64,000 nucleotides of DNA. It comes from Candidatus Omnitrophota bacterium. GTDB lineage: Bacteria; Omnitrophota; Gorgyraeia; Gygaellales; Profunditerraquicolaceae. Below the pieces are notes generated by a model. It saw nothing but the letters and a program-made list of their open reading frames with translations, was not told where the DNA came from and did no database searches. The stretch lies in the NCBI GenBank assembly GCA_041651115.1, contig JBAZJY010000001.1, positions 261,165 through 325,164 of the forward strand. Direction: 5' to 3'. The position numbers and the translations under genes were made by a program. This document shows, one piece after another, positions 29,902 through 50,089 of the stretch (position 1 is the stretch's first letter; each line of letters starts with the position of its first letter).

Positions 29902-31143
29902 ATGAAAAAGATTTTTCTGGCGCTTAGCGTATGCGCGTTCACATTGCTATCTGGTAATGCCCCCATCGCGTGTTCGGAAACCGGTGATCCTTCAAGGATA
30001 GTTGTTTGCAGTGAAATATTTAATGCGCTGGGCAAAACTGCCGGCGCTTCTAAGGAAGCCGCGGCCATTTTAGCCGGGGCGTTGACGGATAAGGATTTTT
30101 TTATCCGCGCCTCCGCGGCCAAGTCTTTGGGGCTGTTAGGTGATAAAGATTCCGCGTTGATGCTTAAGAAATTGGCCGGAGACGAGAACTACCTTGTGAT
30201 GATCAATGCTACGGCCGCTTTGGTCCACCTTGGCTTATCCGGAGAAGATGCCTTGCTTGATCTGCTTAAAGACAACAGGTCCGAAGTAAGGGGAAACGTC
30301 TTGGGCGTGTTAACTACTTTTAAGGATCAACATCCGGATGTAATACTTGAAATGTTACGCGATGAAAAAAATGATTTTGTGCGCGAGCAGGCTTTGTTGA
30401 GGCTGGGAGAAAATAAATTTATCCAAGCGCAGGAAGTTGTTATTGCGGACACGGAAAACAAGGATCCCGGAGTACGGCAGGCAGCGTGTTTTGCCCTCGG
30501 GCAGATCGGCGGCCCTGAAGCCGGCAAGTTTTTACATAAACGGTTAAGCGATGATGATCCGAGGGTGCGTGCCAGGGCCAAAGAAGCCTTAAGTGTGATT
30601 GGAGACCGCTCAATAATCAGCCTGCTTTGGCAGGACGTAAAAGAAAGAAACGCGTTTTTACGCGGCAGTTCATATGTCGCATTAGCTAATTTAAAAGAAT
30701 TTGACGTTTTGCCGCTTGTCTTAAAGGAAATCATCAGCCCTGATAGCACCTCGCACGCAAGGGCTAAGGCCGCAGAAGCATTGGTGGTCTTGAGGCCGCA
30801 TGTTTCGGAGTTGTCCACCAAAGCGCTCTCCAGCTTGAATATCGGGTCTTTATCTTCGGATAATTTAGAAATTAGCTTTGACTATAAGATCGGCGGGCAA
30901 AGCTTGACAATGACGCTCATTGCCGCGATTAATGATGTTAAAAGCCCGCTGCATCAGGACGCGCCGCTGGTAATTACCATTATGGGGTTAATGGATTGCC
31001 TGCCTGCTTTGCATCAGGCTCTGTTAATGGGTGATCCGGATATGGCAGCATCAGCTGCCTCTGCTTTAGGCGAGATGAAAGATAGCAGCGCTACGGAATA
31101 TCTTATTCAAGCCTGCAAGAAATACGGATGTGGAAAAATTTAA
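29902..31143 (+). CDS. Secreted HEAT/PBS-lyase-like repeat protein.
   Basis: A signal peptide is present ([20 protein letters not shown]). Repeated …R..AA.ALG.LGD… HEAT-like units follow. Confidence 0.6.
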
Positions 31144-33131: not shown

Positions 33132-34496
33132 ATGCTATTAGCCGTAGATATAGGTAATACTAATATCAGTTTTGGTTTATTTAAAGGCAACCGGCTGGTA
33201 AGAAAGTTTGACATACCCAGTGTCGGTTTTAGCCTGGGAAAATTAAGGCTGCGTCTTGGTAAAAAAGCGGATATTTCCGCTGCGATCATTTGCAGCGTTG
33301 TGCCGAGGTTAACGCCAGCCGTAAGTGCCGGTATAAACAAGCTCCTGCGGATAACCCCTATTATAATAGGTAAGGATATAAAAGTTCCCCTAAAAAATCT
33401 TTATCGTAATCCCAGGCAGGTCGGGCAGGACCGTTTAGTTAATGCTTATGCCGGTGTAATGTTCTATGGCAGCCCGTTGATCGCTGTTGATTCAGGTACG
33501 GCAATTACCTTTGACGTAATCTCCCGTAAAAAAGAATATCTCGGCGGGATGATCTTGCCGGGGTTGAATATGTCTTTAGATGCGTTACACTGTAAAACCG
33601 CGCTCCTGCCGCAAATGAAATTACGGCCTCCGAAAGAGTTTATTGGCCGCGATACGCAAGGCAGTATTTTAAGCGGGATTATTCACGGCATTGCAGGGCT
33701 TGCTGATGAAATGGTAAGAAAAATAAGGCTCGTAGTAGGGGAAGATGCCGTAGTGATCGGTACTGGAGGCAATATCAAGTTGATTGCAAAATACTCCCGG
33801 TCGTTTGATGCGGTAGATTCTGATCTAACGCTCAAGGGATTAAACCTGATCTTTAGGGACGGTTCTCAACTCAAAGCTAAAGTGTCCCCTAAAAAGGGAC
33901 ACTTTTCCTTTGGATTCAGAACCGTCCCTAAGTTTATCTTGATTGCCATTTTTAGCCTTCTGTCTTACAGCGTATGCTTTTCCCAGCCATTCGAAGAAAA
34001 GCCTTTATCTGAATCCGTGAAAAAGGGCTTTGAGGAGGCGATCCAGAAATTAGACGCGGAAAAACAAAAAGAGCATAAGAAAATCGCCGCAGAGCTTCAG
34101 GCGAAGCTGGACACAGCAGTGCAGGATTGGGTAAATCAACAGAAAAGTAAGCGTAACCGGGAACTTAACACCATAATTGAGCAGCAATGGGAGAACCTTA
34201 CGGAATTCGGCCCGCGCATACACCGCAGCTATTATTTGCGCGACTATTCGTACACGATCATAAACGTGGATATTGTCAAGACCGAGTCAATGATCGGCGC
34301 TTATAAGGCGGTGATGAACGTAACGGAAAAACTTTTTGCCGAACGTTATCATTCACCGGACGTGACTTATCCGCAGGATTTTTACTATACGGTTACGACA
34401 CCGGTCCGCGTAAACTTTGAATATTATCACGATAAGTTTGTGGTTACGACAACCGAATACGGAAAAGGCTCAATTGACCCGGGATGGAGAAGATAG
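33132..34496 (+). CDS. coaX: Type III pantothenate kinase fused to a roughly 200-aa C-terminal extension that starts with a signal-peptide-like helix.
   Basis: The CoaX N-terminus MLLAVDIGNTNISFGLF covers about the first 240 aa. The 75-nt palindromic element then lies in frame, followed by KFILIAIFSLLSYSVCFSQ and an unknown domain. Confidence 0.7.
   Translation: MLLAVDIGNTNISFGLFKGNRLVRKFDIPSVGFSLGKLRLRLGKKADISAAIICSVVPRLTPAVSAGINKLLRITPIIIGKDIKVPLKNLYRNPRQVGQDRLVNAYAGVMFYGSPLIAVDSGTAITFDVISRKKEYLGGMILPGLNMSLDALHCKTALLPQMKLRPPKEFIGRDTQGSILSGIIHGIAGLADEMVRKIRLVVGEDAVVIGTGGNIKLIAKYSRSFDAVDSDLTLKGLNLIFRDGSQLKAKVSPKKGHFSFGFRTVPKFILIAIFSLLSYSVCFSQPFEEKPLSESVKKGFEEAIQKLDAEKQKEHKKIAAELQAKLDTAVQDWVNQQKSKRNRELNTIIEQQWENLTEFGPRIHRSYYLRDYSYTIINVDIVKTESMIGAYKAVMNVTEKLFAERYHSPDVTYPQDFYYTVTTPVRVNFEYYHDKFVVTTTEYGKGSIDPGWRR
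33855..33929. repeat. 75-nt nested-hairpin palindromic element (copy 1), in-frame inside the coaX ORF.
   Basis: Outer arms agggacggttct / cagaaccgtccct flank an inner hairpin gtgtccc-ctaaaaa-gggacac. The architecture and length match the copy at 36566-36640. Confidence 0.7.
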
Positions 34497-36885: not shown

Positions 36886-39800
36886 ATGGCAATTAAATCC
36901 CCGTCCCTGCGCAAGCTCGTATCTCTACTTCTTACCTTCACCTTTCTCTTTACCCAAACCGGCTTTGCCCAGGTAGCAGCTGTTGAGCTTAACATCGGCT
37001 CGCACTTAGGAATCCTTGGCTCAAAGCTTTCTTCACCGGACAAGCTCCGCCTACCGCATTTAAGGTATTTCTCCTACGATAACCAAAATAACAATATCCA
37101 GCTTCTTTTAGATAAGGGAGACTTAAAGGACCTAAAAGACCAAGCCCTAGAGGATTCAGGAAAAGAGCTCCTAAAGTACTTCCTTATAGGCGTAACTCTT
37201 CCTGATGAGCACTTCTGGGTAAACCTTCGGCCTGATTCAGAAGAAAACATCATCCCTGAACTCTTAGCCAAGACTGATATCGGTAAAATCTTTCTTGAAG
37301 CAGATGTCCAGCTTAAAAAAGATACCGCAAGCCTAACCTCACCTAACAGCCCCCAGGGAAAGCTTTACTGGGACAAGCTCTATAAAAAAGCAGCCCAAAT
37401 CTACGGCACCCAGAATGTCACTATCCCCACCTTAACCCGTCCTTGGATTGTGCCAAATGAGATCATTATTCGCGAGTCAAAGGAAAGCGCTTACATCTAC
37501 AAGGCTACATTAAAGGTAATGTTAGAGCAGGACCACCTTAAAGGCTCGGTTAACTATAACTTTGAAGACTCCCGCGCCAAAGAACTCAATGAATATTCAT
37601 CAGAGCTTATTAGAGAACTCATCCTTCCTGAATTAACCAAGGAAGTAAACAATGCCAAACGCTATTCCCAGCTAAGACAGGTCTACTACTCTTTAATACT
37701 CGCACGCTGGTTTAAGGCCAGGTTCTACGGTAAAGGAGGCCTTTATGCTTCCTACATTAATAAAGCTAACCTAGAAGGCTTAACTTCTAACCAAAGCTGG
37801 TCAAAAGACACTTATTTTAAAGCTTACCAGTCTTCCTTTAAAGACGGCGAATATAATCTCCAGGCTACAGTAAACACCATCTCCGGCCCATCAATTAGAA
37901 GCTACTTCTCAGGCGGCATGGAATTCGGCCCTAATATGAACATTGTTACTCAAAACAGAAGCTCTGTCCCCATGATTGCCGGCTTCCAGGGTAAACTCTC
38001 AAGCCCCATGCTGATAAACGTAGGCATGAATAATGGCATGTCTTTACTTGTTGGCGCACCTACCATCAAGAATCCGATAATGCTGATGCAGGGAGTGGGG
38101 TCAAGCCCGGTTGATGAGGAGCCTAAGATTCCGAATATTAATCCTGAAGATGGGCGTATACCGGATCCTGAACCGACAGAAAACGAAAACCCTGGCGATG
38201 AGCCGGAAATTAATTATAACGATCATTCCTATGATGATCAGGAGGCGCCGGAGAAAGATGAAGAAGTTGGCTCCAGCCCGCTGACTACAGAAGAAATAAA
38301 GAACAATGCCAAGGCTGCTTTGGAGAAGTTAGTTAAGGATAATAAAGATTCGCAATTAATAAGAGAAGTTTCCGGCATTGTATTGAATGATAGGGCTAGA
38401 AACATAACTAGCCGTATATTTAAGAAGATTTCTCCCAATACGGCAAGCTCCTACGACAAAAAAATGAAAATCCTGCATCTACTCGAAACAGTTAGGCGTA
38501 GTCCAGTCCATAGTGATCTTAAAGCAGGCTGCGCGGAGGCCGCGTATTATATTAAGGAAAGAGATGATCTTGAATTTCTTAAGTGGAGAGGAAACACGGA
38601 AGTTTTTGGACCAGAACACAGGATAATCGCCAAGATGGCGGTTTTGTTTAAGACAAGAAAAGACGATGAAAGAAGTAAAATAGCACAAGAGATTATTGAT
38701 TTAGATAATAGTACGCACTATGAATCTTATCAGGTTGATTCCATGGCAAAATTTAAGACTTTATTCTATTCTGTCCAATATCTCTTTTCCGAAGACTTTG
38801 CCGCCGCCTCCAGTCCATTCAAAGTCGAACCTGTCAGTTCGTTAAAGGTATATTCTGATATTAACCAGCGCATTTGGCTTGACGGCCTGACTTTTGAGAT
38901 GCTGCTTTCAGGCGAGTTTGAAAAACTGGTGCGTGAGCATGGCATAAACGGCGTTACTACCAATCCCTCGCTCATTAAGGCTTATTTTAGCGACCAGCGG
39001 GTGATCGATAAGGCAAGGAAATTAGCTTCCGAAGGATTGGGCAAAAAAGAAATCTATTACCAGCTTGTCAGTGAACTGGCTAGAACTGCGCTGGAGATAT
39101 TCAAGAAAGCCGGTGTAGCCAATGCCAAATTCAGTGTTGAGTTGGATCCTACTGTCAATAATAGCAGCGTAGAAGAAGCTGTTGTGGAAGCAATGCAGTG
39201 GACTGACATTGATCCTGCGCACATGATGGTCAAGGTTGCCCTGACTTCCGACGCAAACGGCGTTGATACGGAAACCGGATATAAAATAATCGAAGAGGTA
39301 ATATCCCGCGGCCGCAATGTTAATGTAACGCTGATTTTCACTCCTGAACACTACAAAAAAGTCGTTCAGGCGTATATCAACGGCCTTAAGCGCGCGCTTC
39401 TTAATGTAAAGGCAGGCAAATTAAGCAAGGAAGAATTTAACCGGATTTATTCCGTTGCCAGCTTTTTTATCTCCCGTTGGGATGTTTATTTTGAGGAAAA
39501 TAAGCTTCTTGCTGATGGTGTGCATGGTAAAGCTGCTAATTCCATTGCGATCGAAGCCTATAATGAGATATTTAAATTCTTTTTCAGCGATGAAAATCCT
39601 GAATGGAAGCAGTTAAAAGATGATGCCGCGTCCATCGGCTGTGAAGTCAGGCCCCAGGAGTTCCTGCTTGCTTCCACCGGTTCTAAAGGCCCTGATATGC
39701 TTAAAAAAGGCGTCATTGATGAAAAAACCGCAGCCGAATATCCTGCCGGGATTTATGTGCATCCTTTGCAGGGCAGTTACGTCGTAAATACCCTTCCTTA

Positions 39801-42800
39801 TGGGACCATAAAACATCTGATTGAAAAGGGCGTGGCTAAGAATGAAGACGGCAGCATTGCGCAAACTATCGAATCCGGATATATCGCAAGTCAGGATGTG
39901 ATGGATTGGCTCAGAGACGCTTCCAGCATAACCGATGTAGGCGCCATACTGCTTAAGAACGCCACAACCGCCTTCCTGAAAGACTTTGCCGATATTCAGA
40001 ATACGCTTGAAGGGCTTGTCTCTGGAAAAACTTCCTCCCCGGTAAATGAACTACAGCGCGCAGACGTTAACCGGATGGTTGATGATTTATTGGGGATGTA
40101 TAAAGCAAAAGACGAGGTAGTAAGGATAGAGAAGCTGGAAGGGATTATCCGGCCTGCGGCCAAAGCCATAGAGGAATATCTTTATGGGCAGTTCGCCGAC
40201 CAGAAAATCGCCGCAAACATCTATGAGAAAGGTATGAAAAATATCATACCGAATCTTGCAAAATGGTATACCGATCCGTATATACAGGAATCTACGGTTT
40301 TAGGCATAGAAGATGCAGTAAAAGAAGGTTATTGGAAATTCATTGCCCAGGCTTATATGGCAAAAATAGCTTATGGCACTGCCGGCGTGCGCGGTAAATT
40401 TGCGTTCGGTAAATATTTCCAGCTGGTAGCTGAAGCAGCTAAGCAAGGAAAAGGCTTAAGGGTGCCTAATCTAAAAGGGCCGAATACCTTTAATGATGAA
40501 ATAGTCCGGCAGTTTACATTAGGAGTTTTAAAATTCCTGGAGAATCAGAATTCCGACCTGCCGAAATCAGGCCTGAAATTATTCACCGCTTATGACAGTA
40601 GAGTTGCAGGAAAAGAATTTGCCCAGATAATCAGGGATATTGGCCTGGCTTATGGGGTACAGGTTTATATTTCCGATGAAGCAATGCCTCTTCCGGAATT
40701 TTCCAACTCTTTAAAAGAGCTATCCGGAGGTAAGGCTGCGATCGGTATTTATATTTCCGCCAGCCACAATGTCAAGCCGGATAACGGCGTGAAATTGATC
40801 GGTGCAGACGGTATGCAATTAGGCGCTAATGACGTCCTGCGCAAGGCGGTAATGAAGGAATTTGACAGCGCAACGCTTAAAGAAGTAGCCGAGTTGCTTA
40901 AAAATTTACCTTCTGAAATACCGGCCGAACAGTTAACATTCATAGGCGGCAAAGAAGAAGAGAAGCTGCCGGGAGTTGAGTATGGAGATCATAAACTTAT
41001 TGATACCCATACCATGCATTTTAATGCCGTGCTTAAGCATGTTAAGGACCAGGAAGCAGTTAAGAAGTATGCTAAAGATATAAATATCCTTTATTGCGCT
41101 TTTCACGGCGCAGGCAGAAGGGCTGCTCCTCGCGTATTGGGCGCGTTGGGATTCAATGTGGAAAAAATAGAGAAGATGGATGCCCTGGACGGCACATTGC
41201 CTGAATTTGCAGATGCCGAGCCGCCGGATCCGGCGCTGGTTGCTTCTTGGAAAAAGGCGCTGCAGGCATATTTAAGTGAACACCGCAGGGAAGACCTGCT
41301 TAAGAAAGACCTTTTTAGCTCCAATGATCCTGACGCAGACAGGTATGGTGGAGTGATCAGGGTAAGTGCTGCAGAGATCCCTGAAGATGAGGCAGTTGCC
41401 GAAGCCATGGGCATAGCTTTCAAGCTTACCGAAGAGGAACAGGCAAAATATGGTTACGGTGGTTTTCGCGTGCTTCCGCCTAATGAATGGAATGCGCTGA
41501 TCGCTTTTTATGACCTGAAACGGTTAAAAGATCAGGGCAAACTTGACCCCAATAAGCATGTTTTAGTTTTTTCACATGTAACTTCGTACTTGATGAAAAA
41601 GATAGCTGATTATTTTGGTATAGCAGTAGTTATTAAGCCGGTAGGCGTGGATCAACTGGCTGATGAGATCGTAAAGCTGGAGAAGCAAGGCAAGATAGCT
41701 GTGAATGGAGCGGAAGAGAGCGGCACATATATGACCAGCGACCACATCCGCGACAAAGACGGCTTCCTGGCAGGCGTGCGCCTGGCAGAGATAGCCTGCG
41801 CTGCCCGCGCACAGGGCAAAACAATCAATGATCTCTTAAACGAGATATATCTTATCCCAGAGATCGGATTTTTCGCGACTACTAACTTCCCCATAGAATA
41901 CGAAGTCTCTGTTCCGGGGACTGCCGCGAAAATGGCTGCGGTAAAATTCCTGCAGAAAGACGTGAAGCCTTTGGTAGAAGAAAGAATACGCAAAGGAGAC
42001 AACCCGGTAATCGCAGGGTATAAGATACATGATGTAGACGAACAGACAGAATTCAGGTCTGGTAAATACGACGAGCCGCTTGAGTATCAGGGATATCCGG
42101 ATGCGGGTATCAGGTTCTACTTTAATCCGGAAAAAACAGGTTTTATCACTGACCGGCCGTCAGGAACCGGCCCTCAGCTGCGTTTCTACGCGCACCTGTT
42201 TTATCTTACGGAAGGGCTTGACCTGGCCGGGCTTAACACTTTGAAGAAAAACGCCTATGCCGAATGCCTAAAGGTGACGAAAGAATGGATGCGAATTACC
42301 CAGAGCAACGACATTAAGGCGCTTGTCAGTTCTCCGGTTGTCAATTCCAGGCAAATAGCAAAGGTACTTTCTGAAATGAAGAAGAATTCCGGATTGCCGA
42401 TATCAATCGCGCCGTCATTAACCGCTACTACCTGGAGTGGAGCTTTGCACGCGATTAATTTTTCCCGGCCTGTTTTTCGCAGGGTAGAACGGGAATCGCT
42501 GAATGAAGAAAGATTTACCGGAAAAACGGCTTTTACAAGCGCCGCGAGCGATACTGATGTAAAAGGCCTGACTACTTATGACGTCATAGCCGGTGAATTC
42601 AAGAGCGTGCGTACAGGTGAACAGGTGAGGGGCTTTATCACTGACCAAACTGCAGCGCTGCCCGAATATACCTATTTTATGCACCGCGGTATATTTGCTT
42701 CCCGTGAAGATATACAAAAAGCTTTTTATGACAACAAGATCCGTTTTGACATCACCGTTATTCCTCCGGGGATCTGGGGCATAGATTATGCTAAAACAGT

Positions 42801-44262
42801 GGGTCATTATCATAAGCCTATAGAGATGCCGGAGATCTATCAGGTAGTCAGTGGTGATGTGCTTTGGTTGATGCAAAAACTTGATAAAAACGGAAACGTG
42901 GAAGACTTTGTTACTGTTAGGGCCAAGGCAGGGGATATTGCGATCATGCTTCCCGGTTACGGCCATGTGAGCGTAAATCTTTCAGAAACTGCGCCGTTAG
43001 TCTTGGCGAACTGGTTGACTTGGAATCAAAGCTCTGAGTATGGATCGTTTAAAGATAAGGGCGGAGCTGCTTATTATGTGGTTAAAAATGGCGATGGCCA
43101 GCCGGAATTAAGGCCGAATCCCAAATATGTTGTAGCGCAGGGAACGCTTCCAGAACCGCGCCAGATGGTTGCTAAGGACGGCATTGAAGTATTTGGATTG
43201 AAGAGGGGCGAGCCAATTTATAATCTGGTAAAATTAGACGCGGAAGATTTTGCCAATAAGATTGATCACTTGAATAATCCAGCCAATTATGATAAAGAGC
43301 TGACTGTTGAGGCGACTTTAGATAAAGCTAACCCAGGGGATCGGATTACCTCCAGCTCACCGGTGAAAGACATCAAGTTTGAAGGTAAGAATGCCTTTAT
43401 ATCCGGAGAAGACATTGCTGCTTTAAAAGAAGGCAGGAAACATATTGAAGTAGGCATAAATGGCCAGCAGCTCATTACCATCACGGGCATTGCTTCATTG
43501 AAGCCGCAGGTTATTGCCGCGCAAACTGCTGATTATGAGATCCGGCAGAGGGCTACCACTGATAGCCACGAAGCAGTCCTGTTTAATTTTAAGAAAAAAC
43601 AGGGCGACGACGGAAATTACCATGCCGTCAAGGTGGCGTATCAGGCAATACAGGGCGGGCAGCTGGTTATTTCTTTCTGGGAATTAGGCAGGAATAACCA
43701 GTATTACGGACGTATTGTCAGCGCCTCCAGCCCGGTAAGAAAAAGTAAAGATGAGCTAGAAGAGTATGAAGTATCCAAGGGACGGACAGATGATGACGCT
43801 GGGTCTGAAATAGAGCCGGAAGAAGTGACGGATGACGCAGACCTATATCCTAATATGCCTGGCGAGGATAAGGATTCGGATGAAGATTCCTCTAGTCCTT
43901 TAGACAAAAAAGGCGGTATTGACTTCCGCTCGCTGCCTCTAACCATCCAGCCAGCAGGAAGCTTTAAGGAGCTGACGTTTTCACTGCCTCCTGCTAAACA
44001 GCTCGCCAGCATCAATATCTCAAAGGAATTAGTTGAGATCAAGAATATGGTTGATAAAGGAATCGCTCCTTCAGGTGAGAGAGTAAAGGACCTGGTTGCA
44101 GCCTGTTATCAGAAGAATGAGCTGGCCAGTCATCAGGAAGAGCTGATCTCATGTCTTATGCGCATATGTAAGCTTCAGGAAGACCTAGTCCTTCCGGTTG
44201 ATAATAGCCTAAAAGAAGCAATTGTAATTGTTGATTCACTAAATATAGCGTATGCACATTAA
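36886..44262 (+). CDS. Giant modular protein 1 (2458 aa). It comprises a signal peptide and a shared N-domain, a transaldolase-like module, an alpha-D-phosphohexomutase module, a cupin-type phosphoglucose isomerase module and a shared C-terminal domain.
   Basis: The RBS is aaggagag. The N-terminal signal peptide reads LLLTFTFLFTQTGFAQVAA. The TAL module carries GVTTNPSLI, MVKVALTS, NVNVTLIF and ASTGSK. The PGM module carries YGTAGVRG, ISASHNVKPDNG, DPDADR, GAEESGT and RPSGTGPQLRFY. The cPGI cupin module carries TVGHYHKPIEMPE and PGYGHVSVN. The modules are separated by SSP[VL] motifs. Confidence 0.8.
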   Translation: MAIKSPSLRKLVSLLLTFTFLFTQTGFAQVAAVELNIGSHLGILGSKLSSPDKLRLPHLRYFSYDNQNNNIQLLLDKGDLKDLKDQALEDSGKELLKYFLIGVTLPDEHFWVNLRPDSEENIIPELLAKTDIGKIFLEADVQLKKDTASLTSPNSPQGKLYWDKLYKKAAQIYGTQNVTIPTLTRPWIVPNEIIIRESKESAYIYKATLKVMLEQDHLKGSVNYNFEDSRAKELNEYSSELIRELILPELTKEVNNAKRYSQLRQVYYSLILARWFKARFYGKGGLYASYINKANLEGLTSNQSWSKDTYFKAYQSSFKDGEYNLQATVNTISGPSIRSYFSGGMEFGPNMNIVTQNRSSVPMIAGFQGKLSSPMLINVGMNNGMSLLVGAPTIKNPIMLMQGVGSSPVDEEPKIPNINPEDGRIPDPEPTENENPGDEPEINYNDHSYDDQEAPEKDEEVGSSPLTTEEIKNNAKAALEKLVKDNKDSQLIREVSGIVLNDRARNITSRIFKKISPNTASSYDKKMKILHLLETVRRSPVHSDLKAGCAEAAYYIKERDDLEFLKWRGNTEVFGPEHRIIAKMAVLFKTRKDDERSKIAQEIIDLDNSTHYESYQVDSMAKFKTLFYSVQYLFSEDFAAASSPFKVEPVSSLKVYSDINQRIWLDGLTFEMLLSGEFEKLVREHGINGVTTNPSLIKAYFSDQRVIDKARKLASEGLGKKEIYYQLVSELARTALEIFKKAGVANAKFSVELDPTVNNSSVEEAVVEAMQWTDIDPAHMMVKVALTSDANGVDTETGYKIIEEVISRGRNVNVTLIFTPEHYKKVVQAYINGLKRALLNVKAGKLSKEEFNRIYSVASFFISRWDVYFEENKLLADGVHGKAANSIAIEAYNEIFKFFFSDENPEWKQLKDDAASIGCEVRPQEFLLASTGSKGPDMLKKGVIDEKTAAEYPAGIYVHPLQGSYVVNTLPYGTIKHLIEKGVAKNEDGSIAQTIESGYIASQDVMDWLRDASSITDVGAILLKNATTAFLKDFADIQNTLEGLVSGKTSSPVNELQRADVNRMVDDLLGMYKAKDEVVRIEKLEGIIRPAAKAIEEYLYGQFADQKIAANIYEKGMKNIIPNLAKWYTDPYIQESTVLGIEDAVKEGYWKFIAQAYMAKIAYGTAGVRGKFAFGKYFQLVAEAAKQGKGLRVPNLKGPNTFNDEIVRQFTLGVLKFLENQNSDLPKSGLKLFTAYDSRVAGKEFAQIIRDIGLAYGVQVYISDEAMPLPEFSNSLKELSGGKAAIGIYISASHNVKPDNGVKLIGADGMQLGANDVLRKAVMKEFDSATLKEVAELLKNLPSEIPAEQLTFIGGKEEEKLPGVEYGDHKLIDTHTMHFNAVLKHVKDQEAVKKYAKDINILYCAFHGAGRRAAPRVLGALGFNVEKIEKMDALDGTLPEFADAEPPDPALVASWKKALQAYLSEHRREDLLKKDLFSSNDPDADRYGGVIRVSAAEIPEDEAVAEAMGIAFKLTEEEQAKYGYGGFRVLPPNEWNALIAFYDLKRLKDQGKLDPNKHVLVFSHVTSYLMKKIADYFGIAVVIKPVGVDQLADEIVKLEKQGKIAVNGAEESGTYMTSDHIRDKDGFLAGVRLAEIACAARAQGKTINDLLNEIYLIPEIGFFATTNFPIEYEVSVPGTAAKMAAVKFLQKDVKPLVEERIRKGDNPVIAGYKIHDVDEQTEFRSGKYDEPLEYQGYPDAGIRFYFNPEKTGFITDRPSGTGPQLRFYAHLFYLTEGLDLAGLNTLKKNAYAECLKVTKEWMRITQSNDIKALVSSPVVNSRQIAKVLSEMKKNSGLPISIAPSLTATTWSGALHAINFSRPVFRRVERESLNEERFTGKTAFTSAASDTDVKGLTTYDVIAGEFKSVRTGEQVRGFITDQTAALPEYTYFMHRGIFASREDIQKAFYDNKIRFDITVIPPGIWGIDYAKTVGHYHKPIEMPEIYQVVSGDVLWLMQKLDKNGNVEDFVTVRAKAGDIAIMLPGYGHVSVNLSETAPLVLANWLTWNQSSEYGSFKDKGGAAYYVVKNGDGQPELRPNPKYVVAQGTLPEPRQMVAKDGIEVFGLKRGEPIYNLVKLDAEDFANKIDHLNNPANYDKELTVEATLDKANPGDRITSSSPVKDIKFEGKNAFISGEDIAALKEGRKHIEVGINGQQLITITGIASLKPQVIAAQTADYEIRQRATTDSHEAVLFNFKKKQGDDGNYHAVKVAYQAIQGGQLVISFWELGRNNQYYGRIVSASSPVRKSKDELEEYEVSKGRTDDDAGSEIEPEEVTDDADLYPNMPGEDKDSDEDSSSPLDKKGGIDFRSLPLTIQPAGSFKELTFSLPPAKQLASINISKELVEIKNMVDKGIAPSGERVKDLVAACYQKNELASHQEELISCLMRICKLQEDLVLPVDNSLKEAIVIVDSLNIAYAH
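36928..38112 (+). repeat. 1.2-kb direct repeat, copy 1 (5' coding region of giant gene 1).
   Basis: This tract is near-identical to 44321-45505. About 900 nt are perfectly identical, then mismatches become increasingly frequent, with no indels. Confidence 0.85.
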
Positions 44263-47200
44263 TCCTCAAAAAAGGGGACGTTTCCGGGAAACGTCCCCTT
44301 TTTCAAGATTTATTTCCCTGCTTCTTACCTTCACCTTTCTCTTTACCCAAACCGGCTTTGCCCAGGTAGCAGCTGTTGAGCTTAACATCGGCTCGCACTT
44401 AGGAATCCTTGGCTCAAAGCTTTCTTCACCGGACAAGCTCCGCCTACCGCATTTAAGGTATTTCTCCTACGATAACCAAAATAACAATATCCAGCTTCTT
44501 TTAGATAAGGGAGACTTAAAGGACCTAAAAGACCAAGCCCTAGAGGATTCAGGAAAAGAGCTCCTAAAGTACTTCCTTATAGGCGTAACTCTTCCTGATG
44601 AGCACTTCTGGGTAAACCTTCGGCCTGATTCAGAAGAAAACATCATCCCTGAACTCTTAGCCAAGACTGATATCGGTAAAATCTTTCTTGAAGCAGATGT
44701 CCAGCTTAAAAAAGATACCGCAAGCCTAACCTCACCTAACAGCCCCCAGGGAAAGCTTTACTGGGACAAGCTCTATAAAAAAGCAGCCCAAATCTACGGC
44801 ACCCAGAATGTCACTATCCCCACCTTAACCCGTCCTTGGATTGTGCCAAATGAGATCATTATTCGCGAGTCAAAGGAAAGCGCTTACATCTACAAGGCTA
44901 CATTAAAGGTAATGTTAGAGCAGGACCACCTTAAAGGCTCGGTTAACTATAACTTTGAAGACTCCCGCGCCAAAGAACTCAATGAATATTCATCAGAGCT
45001 TATTAGAGAACTCATCCTTCCTGAATTAACCAAGGAAGTAAACAATGCCAAACGCTATTCCCAGCTAAGACAGGTCTACTACTCTTTAATACTCGCACGC
45101 TGGTTTAAGGCCAGGTTCTACGGTAAAGGAGGCCTTTATGCTTCCTACATTAATAAAGCTAACCTAGAAGGCTTAACTTCTAACCAAAGCTGGTCAAAAG
45201 ACACTTATTTTAAAGCTTACCAGTCTTCTTTTAAAGACGGCGAATATAATCTCCAGGCTACAGTAAACACCATCTCCGGCCCATCAATTAGAAGCTATTT
45301 CTCAGGCGGCATGGAATTCGGCCCTAATATGAACATCGTTACTCAAAACAGAAGCTCTATCCCCATGATTGCCGGCTTCCAAGGCAAGCTCTCAAGTCCT
45401 ATGCTGATGAAGATTGGCAATGAGAACGGCATGGTGAGCCTTATGGGCGCGCCGACGATTAAGAATCCGATAATGCTGATGCAGGGAGTGGGGTCAAGCC
45501 CGGTAAAAGAGATTGATCTTGAAAATGGCAGCTTCCCGATTATGTTTGACAATGGCAACATAATAATTGAAAGAAACAATGAAAATAATTTTACCCGGGT
45601 AAAGCTTCAAAATAAAAAAGGCGATATTTTTATGTTTTCTCTAGAGGATAAGATTTATTTCTTACCTGACGAGAAGATCGTTTCGGTAAAAGATGATGAA
45701 CCGGTATTTGATGTTCAGGTGCGGCTTAATGTTGAGATCAACGGCCGCGCAGTAAAGAGTATTAATTTTGATCGGGATATTACAAGGCCATACGAGCTTA
45801 GTATAAGTAACGATGAAGCCGGTAAAAAATTAACCGTGGCGTTAGACTCCAGGGTTTATGAACAGCTATTCAATACTGACGAGACTAAGAGGTTCCTTAT
45901 AAGCGAAGCAACAGCCACCAAAGGCGGGTATAAGCTGATCATAAAGGAAATGAACTCTAGCCCGGTTACGGTAGATTCGGGAAAAATATCCCGGGTGCTT
46001 GATGATGAACTTGTAAAAAACCTGTTAACTTGGCAGGGAAGAAACGGTAATCCTGCTATATGGTATATTGGCATTGAAGATTACAGTGAGACGCATCCCT
46101 TTACAGTTTCTGAAGCAGCCAGGAACAAGGTTAAGTTAGTAGATTATGCCTATAAGACGGTAGTGGATGCGGCCGAGCGATATCAACTTAATCCCCAGGA
46201 GAAAGTTAATTTGATCAACATTCTGGCTAAGCAGCTCAATTTTGCAGGAGCGGAAATCCAGGATAATCACGCAATCGTTTCCAAATACGATTATTATGAC
46301 CGTCTAAGGAATATAGCCGCTCAGGTAGATTCCAATGAACTAAAAACCTGGCTTCTGAACTCTGCTCTTCAGAACTCCGATCTGTCAAGAGGGGTTAATT
46401 ACTTTTCCGCGGCCGTAGATAATTTTGAGGACGATGTAGCGTGGGCCGGCAGTTATTTTAACCTTTACAGTAAAATCCCCAACAGCAAAGCATTTAAATA
46501 TACGCTGGCCATGCTATTGCTTAGTAAAAATCCGGCGCATCATGATGGCGCGATGTGGATCATAAATGAGAAACTCGGTGGTTACGATATCGGGAATCAA
46601 GATGGAGCGTGGCAGTTCTATAGGGAAGCAGTAATAGATGCATTGGGGAAAAAAGACGGGGACATAGCTGCTGAATATGCCGATCTTTTTGTAAAAAACG
46701 CGGCGAGAAAAATTGGTATATTAGCCGTCTCCAGTCCGCTGGCAAAAGATAGTAAGGAAGTTTTACAGAAAATTATGCAAAGCACCGATCCTCTCTGGAG
46801 CTATCCGTTGGATGCCTTAGAGTACCACTTAAAAAATAATCCCTCGCTTCTGCCTGTAGAAGATTATGCGCAGAATGCTAAAGGCGTAGAGGACTTCGTC
46901 GTTACGTTGGCAAAGAAAGCCAGAGAGTTACGCGATAAAGACAGCGTAGAAGGCCCGGCTTTAGGCGGCAGCTATCCCTATTATGGCATAATCTTTAACG
47001 TAGTGAGGTTGAGCTTAGATAAAATAGAAGTTTCCTCCGGATACAAGAAAGCAATACTTAATCTGTTTTCTGATATAGCCGGCTATGAAGACGTTAAAGA
47101 TAGTATCGGCGAAAATCTATCAGAGATGCTCAAGGCTTTAATTATAAAAGGCATTCTTAGTTCCGGAGAGATTATTGAGATCGCGCAAATGTTTTCGTTG

Positions 47201-50089
47201 ACCCCGAATACCCCCGAAGAGTATTCTGCGGGAATGATTGAAATAGCTATCCAGCATAAGCGTATTAACGCAGATGCTTATCTTGATTATGCCTTGCCGC
47301 TTATTGTAGGGGCAATAGAGAGAAGCCAGTTACCCGAATTCCATTTTAGTATTCTTGAGCCTAGGCATGTTTTAGAGATTGCCAAAGCCATTTGGCAAAA
47401 TGAACGGTTAAGCCTTAATGACAAAGGGTATCCGGATGCGCAGGAAGTGGATGAGTTTATTAAACAGGCAGATGAAAATATCTCCGCGATGCGCAAGAAT
47501 AAAGCATTATTTGACGGGCTATATCAGGACATACAAGCCGCAAAGCTTAAGTCACAAACCGAAACCGGCCTTGAAAGCTCTCCGATTAATGTTAGCGGTT
47601 TTGGAATACCGGAAGCAGCGGGAAATCGTATCAAAGCCGTAGCCGTACCGTCTGACAAAATCAACCATGACTTTTATACCCAGCTGAACAAAAAAGGCTA
47701 TGCCGTGGTTTTTTCCGATACGGAAGAGAATTTCGGCGCTTTTCTGCAGTCATTTGGCAAATATCAGATTCTTATCGGCAATGATAACCCCTTATTCATT
47801 AAACAAATGAGCGGGATGGGGGTAGTTTTAGAAGGCGATAAAGAAGAAAATAGCCGGAGGATAACGGATGCTTTAAAAAAATTCAATCCTCTGCCGCTGG
47901 AGGTAAAAAGATACGCAGGGCAGTTAGCAGATACCCTTGTGGGATCCGAACTGCGCGGTTATATTGACGGTTTGGATAAAGCCCTCTTGCGCGAGAAACT
48001 TATTCAGTTGTTTTCAAGCGAAAGGCCTATGGAGAGATTTGAGCGGGTAGTAGAATATAGGGATGCCGCTTATAAAGTAGAGATACACTGGAAAGATATC
48101 CTCTTGGGAGATTATGTCATATCTTTTAGGGTAAGCAATGCGAATGACAACAGCACGGTCAGCCTGATCTCTGTCCATTCATTTGACAGGAATGCTCCTG
48201 TCAACCGGACATTCCGGCTATTAGACCAGGCTAATGGTTTTGCTCCGCTGGCCTCCAGCCCGGTCAACGTAGGGGAAAAGGTAGCGGAATTCAAGCGGCT
48301 TATTCCTAGTGTAGAAAATTCGCAGATCAAGGTGATTGTAATGCCGTATACTGAGAATAGTTTTCTGCCTGCTTATTTTATGCTGGCGCTCATGTATAAG
48401 ATACCCGAAGGGTCATATTTAAATGATGCGTACAAAGAGGGCAAGGCTTACCGTTTTTATACTACCGGCGTAGATAAGGTTAGAGAACATACCGCAGCCA
48501 TGCTTTTGGGTAAGGCCAATGAGCTTGGCCCGCAGAACTGCCTGTTTATCAGCGCTGATCCGCAGAAGATAGAAGAAGCCCTTAAGTATGGCTGGAAGAC
48601 TGTATTATTGGGCAAAAACGCAGAAGACAATGCCCTGGCAGTAGCGGATATTTTAAATGGTAATGGGGCTATTGTCAGCTCGCCGGTGCAGGGGGAATTA
48701 GGCCAATTATTAATCAGGGACCTGTTGGGTTTAGATGAAACCCCGTCACCGGAAACAGCGCTTAAGTTATTACAGGAGAAGCTCGCATTCTATCAGAAAA
48801 AAGGCTTGTTTTATCGGTCAGGCGAATTTTATGTCCTTGAGGGATACATGGACGATGGGACAGCTTATAATGACTGGGTTGAAAATCCGATCCAGGCTTT
48901 GGTTCTAGCTATGCGTTTCAATAAGGAAAAGTATAAATTGGATCCGGCGACTAAGAAACTTTTGTTGGAGCAAATAGAGGGTTACCGGGAGGGTAAGTAT
49001 TATGTTTTTGAGGGAGGCGGTTTCTCTTTTTCCGTGGAAGATCCCGTAGAAGCTTATGGTATGGCCTTAGAGGATCAAGGATTAGGCAGCGGTATCGGAC
49101 AAAGCTCGCCGTTAGAGGGAGCACGCACGGTTAATGAACTGGGTGAGGCATTGGATGCATATATTGACAGCGGCTATTTTTTTGCTGACGGCTGGAACGA
49201 GCTTTTAAGCTACAGGGATAAGGCGGTCATCAGACGCTTGGGAGAACTGCTTAAAGCTAATGATGCCATGGTCACGGTAATAAGACAATTCATCAAGTCG
49301 CAGTCCAATACGCTTATTCCTTTCGGGATGGATTCGGATAAAGTGTATGAATATATGGAGAATGGGATATTTTCTTTTACGGAGGTCAGCTCTCCGGTGC
49401 AGGCGATAGATGTAATAATACATCCTGCCGAGGGTATAGATGATAAAATTATAAGAATATTAGAATCTCCCAAAACAAAAGAGTTGGTCATGCAAGTAGC
49501 TAAAGAGGCCGTTAATAAGGTAGTTGGTGCTGGTTTCTTGGGAGAGATTGACGGTCAAAAGTTAACCTATCGTTTTCAGGTAGAAAGAGACAAGGATAAC
49601 GTACCTGTAGATATTTCCTTTGACATACGCAATCTTCCTCTTACCCTAGATACTTTTGAACTCCCTAAGTATGATGTCTATGGCCATGCTGAAATAATCC
49701 TTGAAAGGCAATCCCAAAGCTCACCTGTAAATACCGAAGACGCTCATAAGAAAGGCGGTATCGACTTCCGCTCGCTGCCTCTAACCATCCAGCCTGTAGG
49801 AAGCTTTAAGGAATTGCAGTTTTCACTTCCCCCGGCTGAATCTTTAGCTCAAATCAACATCTCAAAGGAATTGGTTGAGATTAAGAGCATGGTAGATAAA
49901 GGAATCGTTCCTTCAGGTGAGAGAGTCAAGGACTTAGTTGCTGCCTGCTACCACAAACAGGAACTATCCAGCCATCAGGAAGAGCTGATGTCTTGCCTGA
50001 TGCGCATCTGCAAGCTTGAAGAAGATATGGTTATGCCTGCTAACGCCAGCCTTAAAGAAGCGATCGTGATTGTGGATAGTATAAAGTAA
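44252..50089 (+). CDS. Giant modular protein 2 (1945 aa). It shares the N-domain and C-terminal domain with protein 1, but its core consists of eight different modules of unknown function.
   Basis: The ATG at 44252 overlaps the end of gene 1 (ATGCACATTAA). Translation would read through the terminator hairpin before entering the shared signal-peptide region. The core modules are again delimited by SSP[VLI] motifs. Confidence 0.7.
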   Translation: MHINPQKRGRFRETSPFSRFISLLLTFTFLFTQTGFAQVAAVELNIGSHLGILGSKLSSPDKLRLPHLRYFSYDNQNNNIQLLLDKGDLKDLKDQALEDSGKELLKYFLIGVTLPDEHFWVNLRPDSEENIIPELLAKTDIGKIFLEADVQLKKDTASLTSPNSPQGKLYWDKLYKKAAQIYGTQNVTIPTLTRPWIVPNEIIIRESKESAYIYKATLKVMLEQDHLKGSVNYNFEDSRAKELNEYSSELIRELILPELTKEVNNAKRYSQLRQVYYSLILARWFKARFYGKGGLYASYINKANLEGLTSNQSWSKDTYFKAYQSSFKDGEYNLQATVNTISGPSIRSYFSGGMEFGPNMNIVTQNRSSIPMIAGFQGKLSSPMLMKIGNENGMVSLMGAPTIKNPIMLMQGVGSSPVKEIDLENGSFPIMFDNGNIIIERNNENNFTRVKLQNKKGDIFMFSLEDKIYFLPDEKIVSVKDDEPVFDVQVRLNVEINGRAVKSINFDRDITRPYELSISNDEAGKKLTVALDSRVYEQLFNTDETKRFLISEATATKGGYKLIIKEMNSSPVTVDSGKISRVLDDELVKNLLTWQGRNGNPAIWYIGIEDYSETHPFTVSEAARNKVKLVDYAYKTVVDAAERYQLNPQEKVNLINILAKQLNFAGAEIQDNHAIVSKYDYYDRLRNIAAQVDSNELKTWLLNSALQNSDLSRGVNYFSAAVDNFEDDVAWAGSYFNLYSKIPNSKAFKYTLAMLLLSKNPAHHDGAMWIINEKLGGYDIGNQDGAWQFYREAVIDALGKKDGDIAAEYADLFVKNAARKIGILAVSSPLAKDSKEVLQKIMQSTDPLWSYPLDALEYHLKNNPSLLPVEDYAQNAKGVEDFVVTLAKKARELRDKDSVEGPALGGSYPYYGIIFNVVRLSLDKIEVSSGYKKAILNLFSDIAGYEDVKDSIGENLSEMLKALIIKGILSSGEIIEIAQMFSLTPNTPEEYSAGMIEIAIQHKRINADAYLDYALPLIVGAIERSQLPEFHFSILEPRHVLEIAKAIWQNERLSLNDKGYPDAQEVDEFIKQADENISAMRKNKALFDGLYQDIQAAKLKSQTETGLESSPINVSGFGIPEAAGNRIKAVAVPSDKINHDFYTQLNKKGYAVVFSDTEENFGAFLQSFGKYQILIGNDNPLFIKQMSGMGVVLEGDKEENSRRITDALKKFNPLPLEVKRYAGQLADTLVGSELRGYIDGLDKALLREKLIQLFSSERPMERFERVVEYRDAAYKVEIHWKDILLGDYVISFRVSNANDNSTVSLISVHSFDRNAPVNRTFRLLDQANGFAPLASSPVNVGEKVAEFKRLIPSVENSQIKVIVMPYTENSFLPAYFMLALMYKIPEGSYLNDAYKEGKAYRFYTTGVDKVREHTAAMLLGKANELGPQNCLFISADPQKIEEALKYGWKTVLLGKNAEDNALAVADILNGNGAIVSSPVQGELGQLLIRDLLGLDETPSPETALKLLQEKLAFYQKKGLFYRSGEFYVLEGYMDDGTAYNDWVENPIQALVLAMRFNKEKYKLDPATKKLLLEQIEGYREGKYYVFEGGGFSFSVEDPVEAYGMALEDQGLGSGIGQSSPLEGARTVNELGEALDAYIDSGYFFADGWNELLSYRDKAVIRRLGELLKANDAMVTVIRQFIKSQSNTLIPFGMDSDKVYEYMENGIFSFTEVSSPVQAIDVIIHPAEGIDDKIIRILESPKTKELVMQVAKEAVNKVVGAGFLGEIDGQKLTYRFQVERDKDNVPVDISFDIRNLPLTLDTFELPKYDVYGHAEIILERQSQSSPVNTEDAHKKGGIDFRSLPLTIQPVGSFKELQFSLPPAESLAQINISKELVEIKSMVDKGIVPSGERVKDLVAACYHKQELSSHQEELMSCLMRICKLEEDMVMPANASLKEAIVIVDSIK
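44274..44303 (+). terminator. Rho-independent terminator/attenuator between the giant genes, lying inside the 5' coding region of gene 2.
   Basis: A perfect 11-bp stem ggggacgtttcc-ggg-aaacgtcccc is followed by ttttt. Confidence 0.6.
44321..45505 (+). repeat. 1.2-kb direct repeat, copy 2 (5' coding region of giant gene 2).
   Basis: It matches copy 1 at a constant offset of 7393 nt. Confidence 0.85.

Follow-up and report, generated by a model that had tools for sequence, protein, structure and literature searches.

Omnitrophota are widespread, ultra-small and uncultured bacteria known for very long multi-enzyme proteins, and whether these proteins are cut is an explicit question in the field. 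A "multi-enzyme metabolic cluster" class has been described in the phylum, in which phosphoglucomutase (PGM) domains are frequent and most members carry a signal peptide or transmembrane helices (Nielsen and Lui, 2026, bioRxiv 10.64898/2026.06.07.730766). For giant proteins, proteolytic processing has been proposed, with the cleavage points stated to be unknown (West-Roberts et al., 2023, bioRxiv 10.1101/2023.11.21.568195). In the text of Nielsen and Lui (2026) the words "motif", "linker" and "cleavage" never appear, and a junction motif, the terminal caps described below (N-domain and GGIDF domain) and glycolytic-enzyme fusions go unmentioned in both preprints and in the main Omnitrophota phylum paper; a literature search for Omnitrophota together with polyprotein returned no papers. 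Here we describe two tandem paralogous genes, p1 and p2, in a 64,000-nucleotide (nt) stretch of a Candidatus Omnitrophota bacterium (assembly GCA_041651115.1, contig JBAZJY010000001.1, positions 261,165 to 325,164; hereafter the window), whose products are divided into modules, or cassettes, by a recurrent Ser-Ser-Pro (SSP) followed by a hydrophobic residue. In its general form, [S/A/G]-[S]-[P/A]-[V/I/L/M] (here S-S-P-V/L/I/F), this tetrapeptide is a selected, protein-level, family-restricted punctuation mark that stands once at each cassette boundary; it flanks complete native proteins and disordered spacers, and it moves with shuffled cassettes. We put the probability that it is the site of a sequence-specific endoprotease, which would make p1 and p2 bacterial polyproteins, at roughly 0.4.

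With the long proteins of their phylum, p1 and p2 have in common many unrelated enzyme domains (PGM among them) on one chain and a signal-like N-terminus, a signal peptide being common there. The published catalogues begin at 10,000 residues or more (>=10 kaa), whereas p1 has 2458 residues and p2 1945, and tiling by distinct Pfam families is seen in p1 (transaldolase, PGM and glucose-6-phosphate isomerase, PGI) and not in p2, which is without a Pfam match. In function, the closest analogies are viral polyproteins and MARTX toxins. As in the polyproteins of picornaviruses and flaviviruses, full proteins are concatenated in one open reading frame (ORF) with short junction peptides and spacer peptides between them; unlike those, p1 and p2 stand on a cellular chromosome, carry housekeeping enzymes and have no cognate protease that could be found, the motif is absent from some members of the family, and cleavage is putative. 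The MARTX toxins of Vibrio and others likewise have conserved N- and C-terminal regions around central cassettes that are shuffled between short delimiting sites. In contrast to them, p1 and p2 show neither RTX/glycine-rich repeats nor a cysteine protease domain in Pfam and NCBIfam scans, their N-terminus looks like a Sec-type rather than a type I secretion signal, and their cargo consists of metabolic enzymes, not toxins. Because these defining protease and repeat features were not found, p1 and p2 are classed as a variant of the Omnitrophota modular multi-enzyme proteins rather than as members of the viral-polyprotein or MARTX groups. The VENN motif of CdiA and the PxxxxDPxGL motif of Rhs proteins are also short peptides where homology stops and a variable module begins; however, they mark one boundary per protein, and the Rhs motif is part of an autoproteolytic fold, whereas here 8-9 boundaries per protein are marked by four residues without a conserved flanking fold. 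The bifunctional transaldolase/phosphoglucose isomerase (NCBIfam NF007080) places two of the p1 activities on one chain. It and other glycolytic fusions are two-enzyme, cytosolic proteins without signal peptide, caps or junction motif, and the PGI of p1 is of the cupin type, unlike that of the NF007080 fusions. Finally, a low-complexity (Pro/Thr/Ser-rich) linker would have no fixed sequence, whereas here one tetrapeptide is enriched and neither its permutations nor its near-variants are.

The motif stands out within the two proteins themselves. SSP occurs 10 times in p1 (36886..44262, 2458 aa) and 11 times in p2 (44252..50089, 1945 aa; both genes and all their features lie on the + strand), against composition-based expectations of 0.47 and 0.43; in 2000 shuffles of each sequence the means were 0.47 and 0.44 and the maximum was 4. 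An earlier note on this DNA, made from the sequence without database searches, had counted about nine SSP[V/L/I] per protein where less than one was expected by chance. Both statements hold, and the eight peptides quoted for p1 and the nine quoted for p2 are all present where the note placed them. At 17 of these 17 sites the residue after SSP is V, L, I or F, the expectation for SSP[VLI] being 0.10 per protein. The two extra SSP of each protein are N-terminal, as SSPD just past the signal-peptide-like segment and SSPM in the disordered N-domain tail, and the remaining 41 ORFs of the window hold 2 SSP altogether. Serine codons of the TCN and AGY types are mixed at the sites, which have nine different 9-nt codings among the 17. 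Since the nucleotides differ in this way, the constraint must act on the peptide and not on a DNA or RNA element.

The p1 sites can be read against recognizable folds. Pfam places transaldolase at residues 663-1040, PGM domains I-III at 1200-1654 and cupin-type PGI at 1930-2072, and PDB sequence matches agree with these enzyme assignments; no Pfam or PDB match crosses a motif, nor does any Pfam match in three relatives (L001, L036 and L068). From the N-terminus, SSPV at residue 406 (38101..38112) closes the N-domain tail and opens acidic spacer 1 (residues 409-462; 38110..38271), which ends at SSPL 463 (38272..38283). Cassette A (176 aa; 38281..38808), with no assigned family, then leads to SSPF 642 (38809..38820), four residues ahead of the start of free-standing transaldolases. 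The transaldolase cassette (residues 645-1049; 38818..40032), a full enzyme, is followed directly after its native C-terminus by SSPV 1050 (40033..40044), and the phosphoglucomutase/phosphomannomutase cassette (residues 1053-1814; 40042..42327), matched in both Pfam and PDB and with its loops legible as SASHN, DPDADR, GAEESG and RPSGTG, by SSPV 1815 (42328..42339), the position of which is kept in the relative P0243. Next come the cupin-type PGI cassette (residues 1818-2156; 42337..43353) and SSPV 2157 (43354..43365), equivalent to an SSPL that closes the orthologous cassette in L059, and then cassette B (121 aa, no assigned family; 43363..43725). SSPV 2281 (43726..43737) and SSPL 2336 (43891..43902), the latter five residues before GGIDF, enclose acidic spacer 2 (residues 2284-2335; 43735..43890), and the C-domain follows (43900..44259). 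The two spacers are thus Asp/Glu-rich, low-complexity segments of 52-54 residues, each with a motif on either side; in the homologous spacer 2 of L003, one SSP stands 3 residues before it and the next 13 residues after it. A 182-aa ORF, probably spurious, runs antisense to the PGM/PGI region of p1 (42418-42966, - strand).

The transaldolase cassette allows the boundaries to be placed most closely. When 51 free-standing transaldolases are aligned with it, they start at p1 residue 649 and end at a median of 1049, that is, between SSP642 and SSP1050. The cassette shares all invariant columns of this 51-sequence alignment, a property that it has by construction. To judge from the sequences, it is a complete enzyme that spans the full length of free-standing transaldolases. 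An AlphaFold2 model of p1 residues 620-1075, built on the same alignment, has a predicted local distance difference test (pLDDT) score of 88.8. In this model SSP642 marks the point where disordered chain gives way to the barrel, and SSP1050 occupies a coil of 8 residues that links the last helix of the transaldolase to the helix after it, where the confidence dips locally. Both motifs are predicted to fall in coil outside the folded domain.

No Pfam or NCBIfam match was obtained for p2, either whole or by cassette (Pfam to E <= 1 gave nothing credible), and a HMMER search with its residues 560-1720 against 1.84 billion representatives returned only p2 itself and one fragment. The stretch of p2 with which the fragment aligns, residues 1340-1480, is exactly the module that SSP1335 and SSP1476 delimit (cassette residues 1338-1475). 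Apart from this one cassette with a relative, all eight p2 cassettes (45503-49717) are orphans. The nine sites are SSPV 415 (45494..45505), SSPV 569 (45956..45967), SSPL 827 (46730..46741), SSPI 1109 (47576..47587), SSPV 1335 (48254..48265), which opens the sole cassette with an outside homologue, SSPV 1476 (48677..48688), which closes it and is kept in L003 and P0243, SSPL 1618 (49103..49114), SSPV 1713 (49388..49399) and SSPV 1823 (49718..49729), 10 residues before the GGIDF of the p2 C-domain (49727..50086). The assertion that every occurrence sits at a domain junction thus stands wherever a junction could be tested; its converse, a motif at every domain boundary, may not hold. At 762 and 339 aa, the PGM and PGI cassettes are both larger than the enzymes they contain and may hold internal domain boundaries without a motif.

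The same tetrapeptide recurs across the family to which p1 and p2 belong. In the part of 76 extracted family proteins that follows the N-domain, no tripeptide is more over-represented than SSP, rare Cys-containing ones excepted, and SSP[VILM] was observed 133 times against 4.7 expected (28-fold). SSA, ASP and GSP before [VILM] are enriched 5- to 7-fold, and TSP, SAP, SST, SSG, AAP, PSS and SPS before [VILM] show no enrichment in the same proteins. The sequence logo reads [S/T]-[S/A]-S-S-P-[V>I>L>M], with V, I, L or M in the +1 position at 132 of 161 sites; Asp is not enriched before the motif serines. In most members the motif or a variant of it stands 5-12 residues ahead of GGIDF. Orthologous cassettes retain their end motifs even where their position and neighbours are other than in p1 (transaldolase in L001, L002 and L036, PGI in L059, PGM in P0243), as does the p2 cassette found in L003 and P0243, and homology between relatives ends exactly at the motif while the neighbouring cassettes differ. 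Consistent with this, 17-18% of the ends of BLAST high-scoring segment pairs between members lie within 5 residues of an SSP (<=5 aa), compared with 2.6% of random positions. Among the non-family ORFs of the same 78 loci (217.8 kaa), only 7 SSP[VILM] were found, 6 of them in three family members that the filter had missed. The prediction that homologous giant proteins would show both enrichment and positional conservation was therefore borne out, by the 28-fold excess and by the motifs kept at orthologous module ends.

The use of the motif varies between genomes. Its density runs from about 10 per kaa down to zero, no replacement tripeptide stands out in the motif-poor subset (top z ~6.7), and in L051 a degenerate sequence occupies the junction orthologous to an L016 motif. 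Which variant is used is specific to the genome and is shared by paralogues with unrelated cassettes (chi2 = 145, 34 degrees of freedom, p ~1e-15): only SSPx in the window, CAZQGT, CAZYCL and JBAZIT, mostly [AG]SPx in JBDRKE and JBAZTA, mostly SSAx in JAPLLX and JAQTPA, and almost none in JBAZLM.

By sequence comparison, p1 and p2 belong to a family that is nearly confined to the Omnitrophota and has conserved caps at both ends; this architecture, in which a signal-peptide-like N-terminus and an N-domain of ~310 aa precede variable cassettes and a C-domain of ~120 aa that starts GGIDF, is defined here. A search with the N-terminal 410 residues gave 350 relatives at 50-65% identity, nearly all labelled Candidatus Omnitrophota and some of them fused to phosphoglycerate kinase (PGK), glyceraldehyde-3-phosphate dehydrogenase (GAPDH), enolase, HEAT or HD domains. 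When species-representative genomes were scanned, 436 matches and 78 loci emerged, with Omnitrophota once more accounting for nearly all of them and several genomes having multiple paralogues. The N-domain core of p1 (residues 58-344; 37057..37917) ends in RSYFSGG, and has no match among solved structures. Ahead of it lies a conserved segment resembling a signal peptide (36886..36972 in p1, read from the sequence and alignment A1), with a K/R n-region, a hydrophobic h-region of ~12 residues (LVSLLLTFTFLF in p1) and a c-region with conserved GFAQ, in the form ..QQxGFAQ; no 19-residue window in the p1 segment attains a Kyte-Doolittle value of 1.6. This Sec-type-looking N-terminus suggests that the family proteins are exported.

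The C-domain closes about two thirds of the complete members. Its conservation was read from the genome loci, since a word-indexed search with the C-domain gave one match and is uninformative. Two subtypes can be told apart, one with an ...EALVIVDS.. ending, as in the window, and one with a ...QELKAVFVG... ending (e.g., P0020-P0054, L039, L067 and L077), which is typical of the minimal members and rich in Cys pairs (QCC and CCL tripeptides enriched). These minimal members, of ~600 aa, consist of N-domain, linker and C-domain. The cassettes of 25 further members comprise PGK (8 members), GAPDH (2), enolase (2), triosephosphate isomerase (TPI), class V fructose-1,6-bisphosphatase (FBPase) and cofactor-independent phosphoglycerate mutase (iPGM), as well as transaldolase, PGM, guanylate kinase, DnaJ, HEAT and HD. 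In L023, where two family genes stand in tandem as in the window, an upstream ORF (31-615) joins the C-terminal part of TPI directly to a GGIDF C-domain.

The two genes of the window overlap by 11 nt between the p1 stop and the p2 start (44252-44262), which suggests co-transcription and perhaps translational coupling. The two proteins are nearly alike over the first ~405 residues, and over the last ~120 they share 75% of their residues and 79% of the underlying nucleotides, while their cassettes are unrelated to each other. Over 908 nt, the N-domain DNA of p1 (36928-37835) and that of p2 (44321-45228) are 100% identical. This looks like homogenisation of the N-domain by recent gene conversion or by a duplication limited to the 5' part; possibly, it results from assembly collapse instead.

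The reading that we favour is that a dedicated factor recognizes the motif, most probably an endoprotease whose cut would fall at S-S-P|hydrophobic or beside it. The cassettes and the acidic spacer peptides would be freed from the N- and C-terminal caps once the chain had been targeted to the membrane or exported. Cutting could be done in cis by the novel N-domain, or in trans by an enzyme that the genome encodes, and drift in the specificity of this protease between lineages would give rise to the genome-specific motif variants. Several observations weigh against this. No peptidase Pfam family is present in p1, p2 or 32 relatives; the ORFs within 5 kb (<=5 kb) of the 76 family genes, once clustered, are housekeeping genes only, with no protease; and the scanned ORFs of the window include none except FtsH. 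The protease expected to co-occur with such proteins was accordingly found neither in the proteins nor in the flanks of the 78 loci. The N-domain, besides its lack of a structural match, has no invariant His or Cys, and large members of 2.5-3.7 kaa exist that have no motif at all (L042, L054 and one L023 paralogue). PGM, PGI and transaldolase, moreover, act on consecutive metabolites, which would fit a tethered assembly equally well. Of the suggestion in the earlier note that SSP|V is a protease cleavage motif, what has stood up is a real and selected junction signal; cleavage itself is inferred.

The most serious rival, somewhat doubtful in our view, is that the motif is an uncleaved hinge between modules, in which one element finishes with S-S-P and the following one is begun or capped by the aliphatic residue. 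The proteins would then be intact membrane-tethered or secreted, metabolon-like assemblies, their paralogues united by the shared N- and C-domains. The short coil between helices in the AlphaFold2 model is what such a hinge would look like, the consecutive reactions of the p1 enzymes, the known TAL-PGI fusions (TAL, transaldolase) and the missing protease speak for it, and the motif-free members indicate that fused enzymes evidently work without the motif, while the minimal members suggest an independent role for the caps. However, passive linkers normally differ from one another in length and in the residues they contain, whereas here a fixed tetrapeptide is enriched 28-fold and its permutations and near-variants are not. 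A recognition site is favoured over a passive linker because the signal is a fixed one of four residues with an obligatory aliphatic residue at +1, because motifs also flank disordered acidic spacers that need no structural cap, and because the motif is limited to one family. It is favoured, further, because the variant follows the genome and not the cassette, as co-evolution with a genome-encoded reader predicts, and because the joins are very short between enzymes of different oligomeric states elsewhere: the enzymes in family proteins are joined by only a few residues, and GAPDH, enolase, TPI, PGK and FBPase, all of them family cargo, differ in oligomeric state in other organisms. The motif has also been kept through synonymous and TCN/AGY codon turnover, which counts against a passive hinge.

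Less probable by some way is a sequon for post-translational modification of the exported protein, for example O-glycosylation or phosphorylation of a serine, by a dedicated transferase or kinase. Two serines in exposed coil, with Pro or Ala and then an aliphatic residue behind them, have the appearance of such a sequon, the signal-peptide-like N-terminus would make the chain accessible to periplasmic modification, and genome-specific variants would suit a co-evolving enzyme as they would a protease. A general bacterial O-glycosylation system, however, would mark many exported proteins, and the motif is almost confined to this family; the Bacteroidota sequon D-(S/T)-(A/I/L/V/M/T) is not matched, Asp not being enriched at -1; exactly one site per junction is unlike the usual glycosylated linker; and no transferase adjoins the genes.

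That the motif is a neutral scar of cassette shuffling, left for example by recombination at a once-conserved DNA site and without present function, we consider very improbable. Cassettes have clearly been swapped between paralogues, homology ends at the motif, and the 908 nt of identical N-domain DNA speak of active recombination or gene conversion. Against this, there is no conservation at the DNA level, given the nine codings among 17 sites, and the peptide is kept at 50% cassette identity, where a scar of no consequence would have eroded from the protein sequence; present alignments point to strong purifying selection on the motif codons. A DNA-level repeat or recombination site as such was ruled out, as the 9-nt codings differ, TCN and AGY serines are mixed, and the long DNA repeats in p1 and p2 are the N- and C-domain copies only. 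Translational punctuation, by 2A-like peptide-bond skipping or a programmed pause at proline that yields separate or separately folded products without a protease, would account for a Pro-centred motif at boundaries but can be set aside almost entirely, given SSA variants without Pro and no conservation at the RNA level; single prolines are not strong stalling sites, and we know of no 2A-like mechanism in bacteria.

The surroundings of p1 and p2 are those of ordinary chromosomal genes. The adjacent genes have housekeeping functions (UvrB, type III pantothenate kinase, GroEL, IMPDH, GuaA, DnaE, HisS and AspS), and secretin, RNase E/G, FtsH and others lie farther upstream in the window. The pantothenate kinase match is confined to residues 2-196 of a 454-aa ORF (33132-34496), whose C-terminal ~250 aa have no Pfam match, and this may be another fusion. 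A free-standing HEAT-repeat protein of 413 aa is encoded ~6 kb upstream (29902-31143), HEAT being also a recurrent cassette of the family. Between 13400 and 18500, a low-GC patch (0.36-0.37 vs ~0.47 elsewhere) holds a series of ORFs without Pfam match, the exceptions being a bacterial PH domain protein within it and a PilZ protein just outside; the patch may be a horizontally acquired or hypervariable island.

With the motif, Omnitrophota multi-enzyme proteins have for the first time a concrete candidate for the place at which they might be cut or recognized, and a precise candidate punctuation code with very strong statistical support. Termini at S-S-P|V/I/L could be sought directly in existing metaproteomes, among them that of Ca. 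Velamenicoccus archaeovorus (PRIDE PXD025008, cited in PMC12583861), and the motif serves as a practical guide for dividing such proteins into units for structure prediction. Published reconstructions count glycolytic genes as present, with no mention of fusions or signal peptides. At least some of the copies, though, sit inside modular proteins that begin with a signal-peptide-like segment, so that gene presence does not settle their location or physical state. It is even conceivable, though we hold it only tentatively, that Omnitrophota make much of their central sugar-phosphate metabolism (PGI, PGM, transaldolase, TPI, GAPDH, PGK, iPGM, enolase and FBPase) as Sec-targeted polyproteins capped by the N-domain and the GGIDF domain, from which the enzymes would be released at S-S-P|V/I/L by a dedicated protease, possibly the N-domain. 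If true, cells would have here their own counterpart to the processing of viral polyproteins, and the motif would be a cleavage code for the giant proteins of Omnitrophota.

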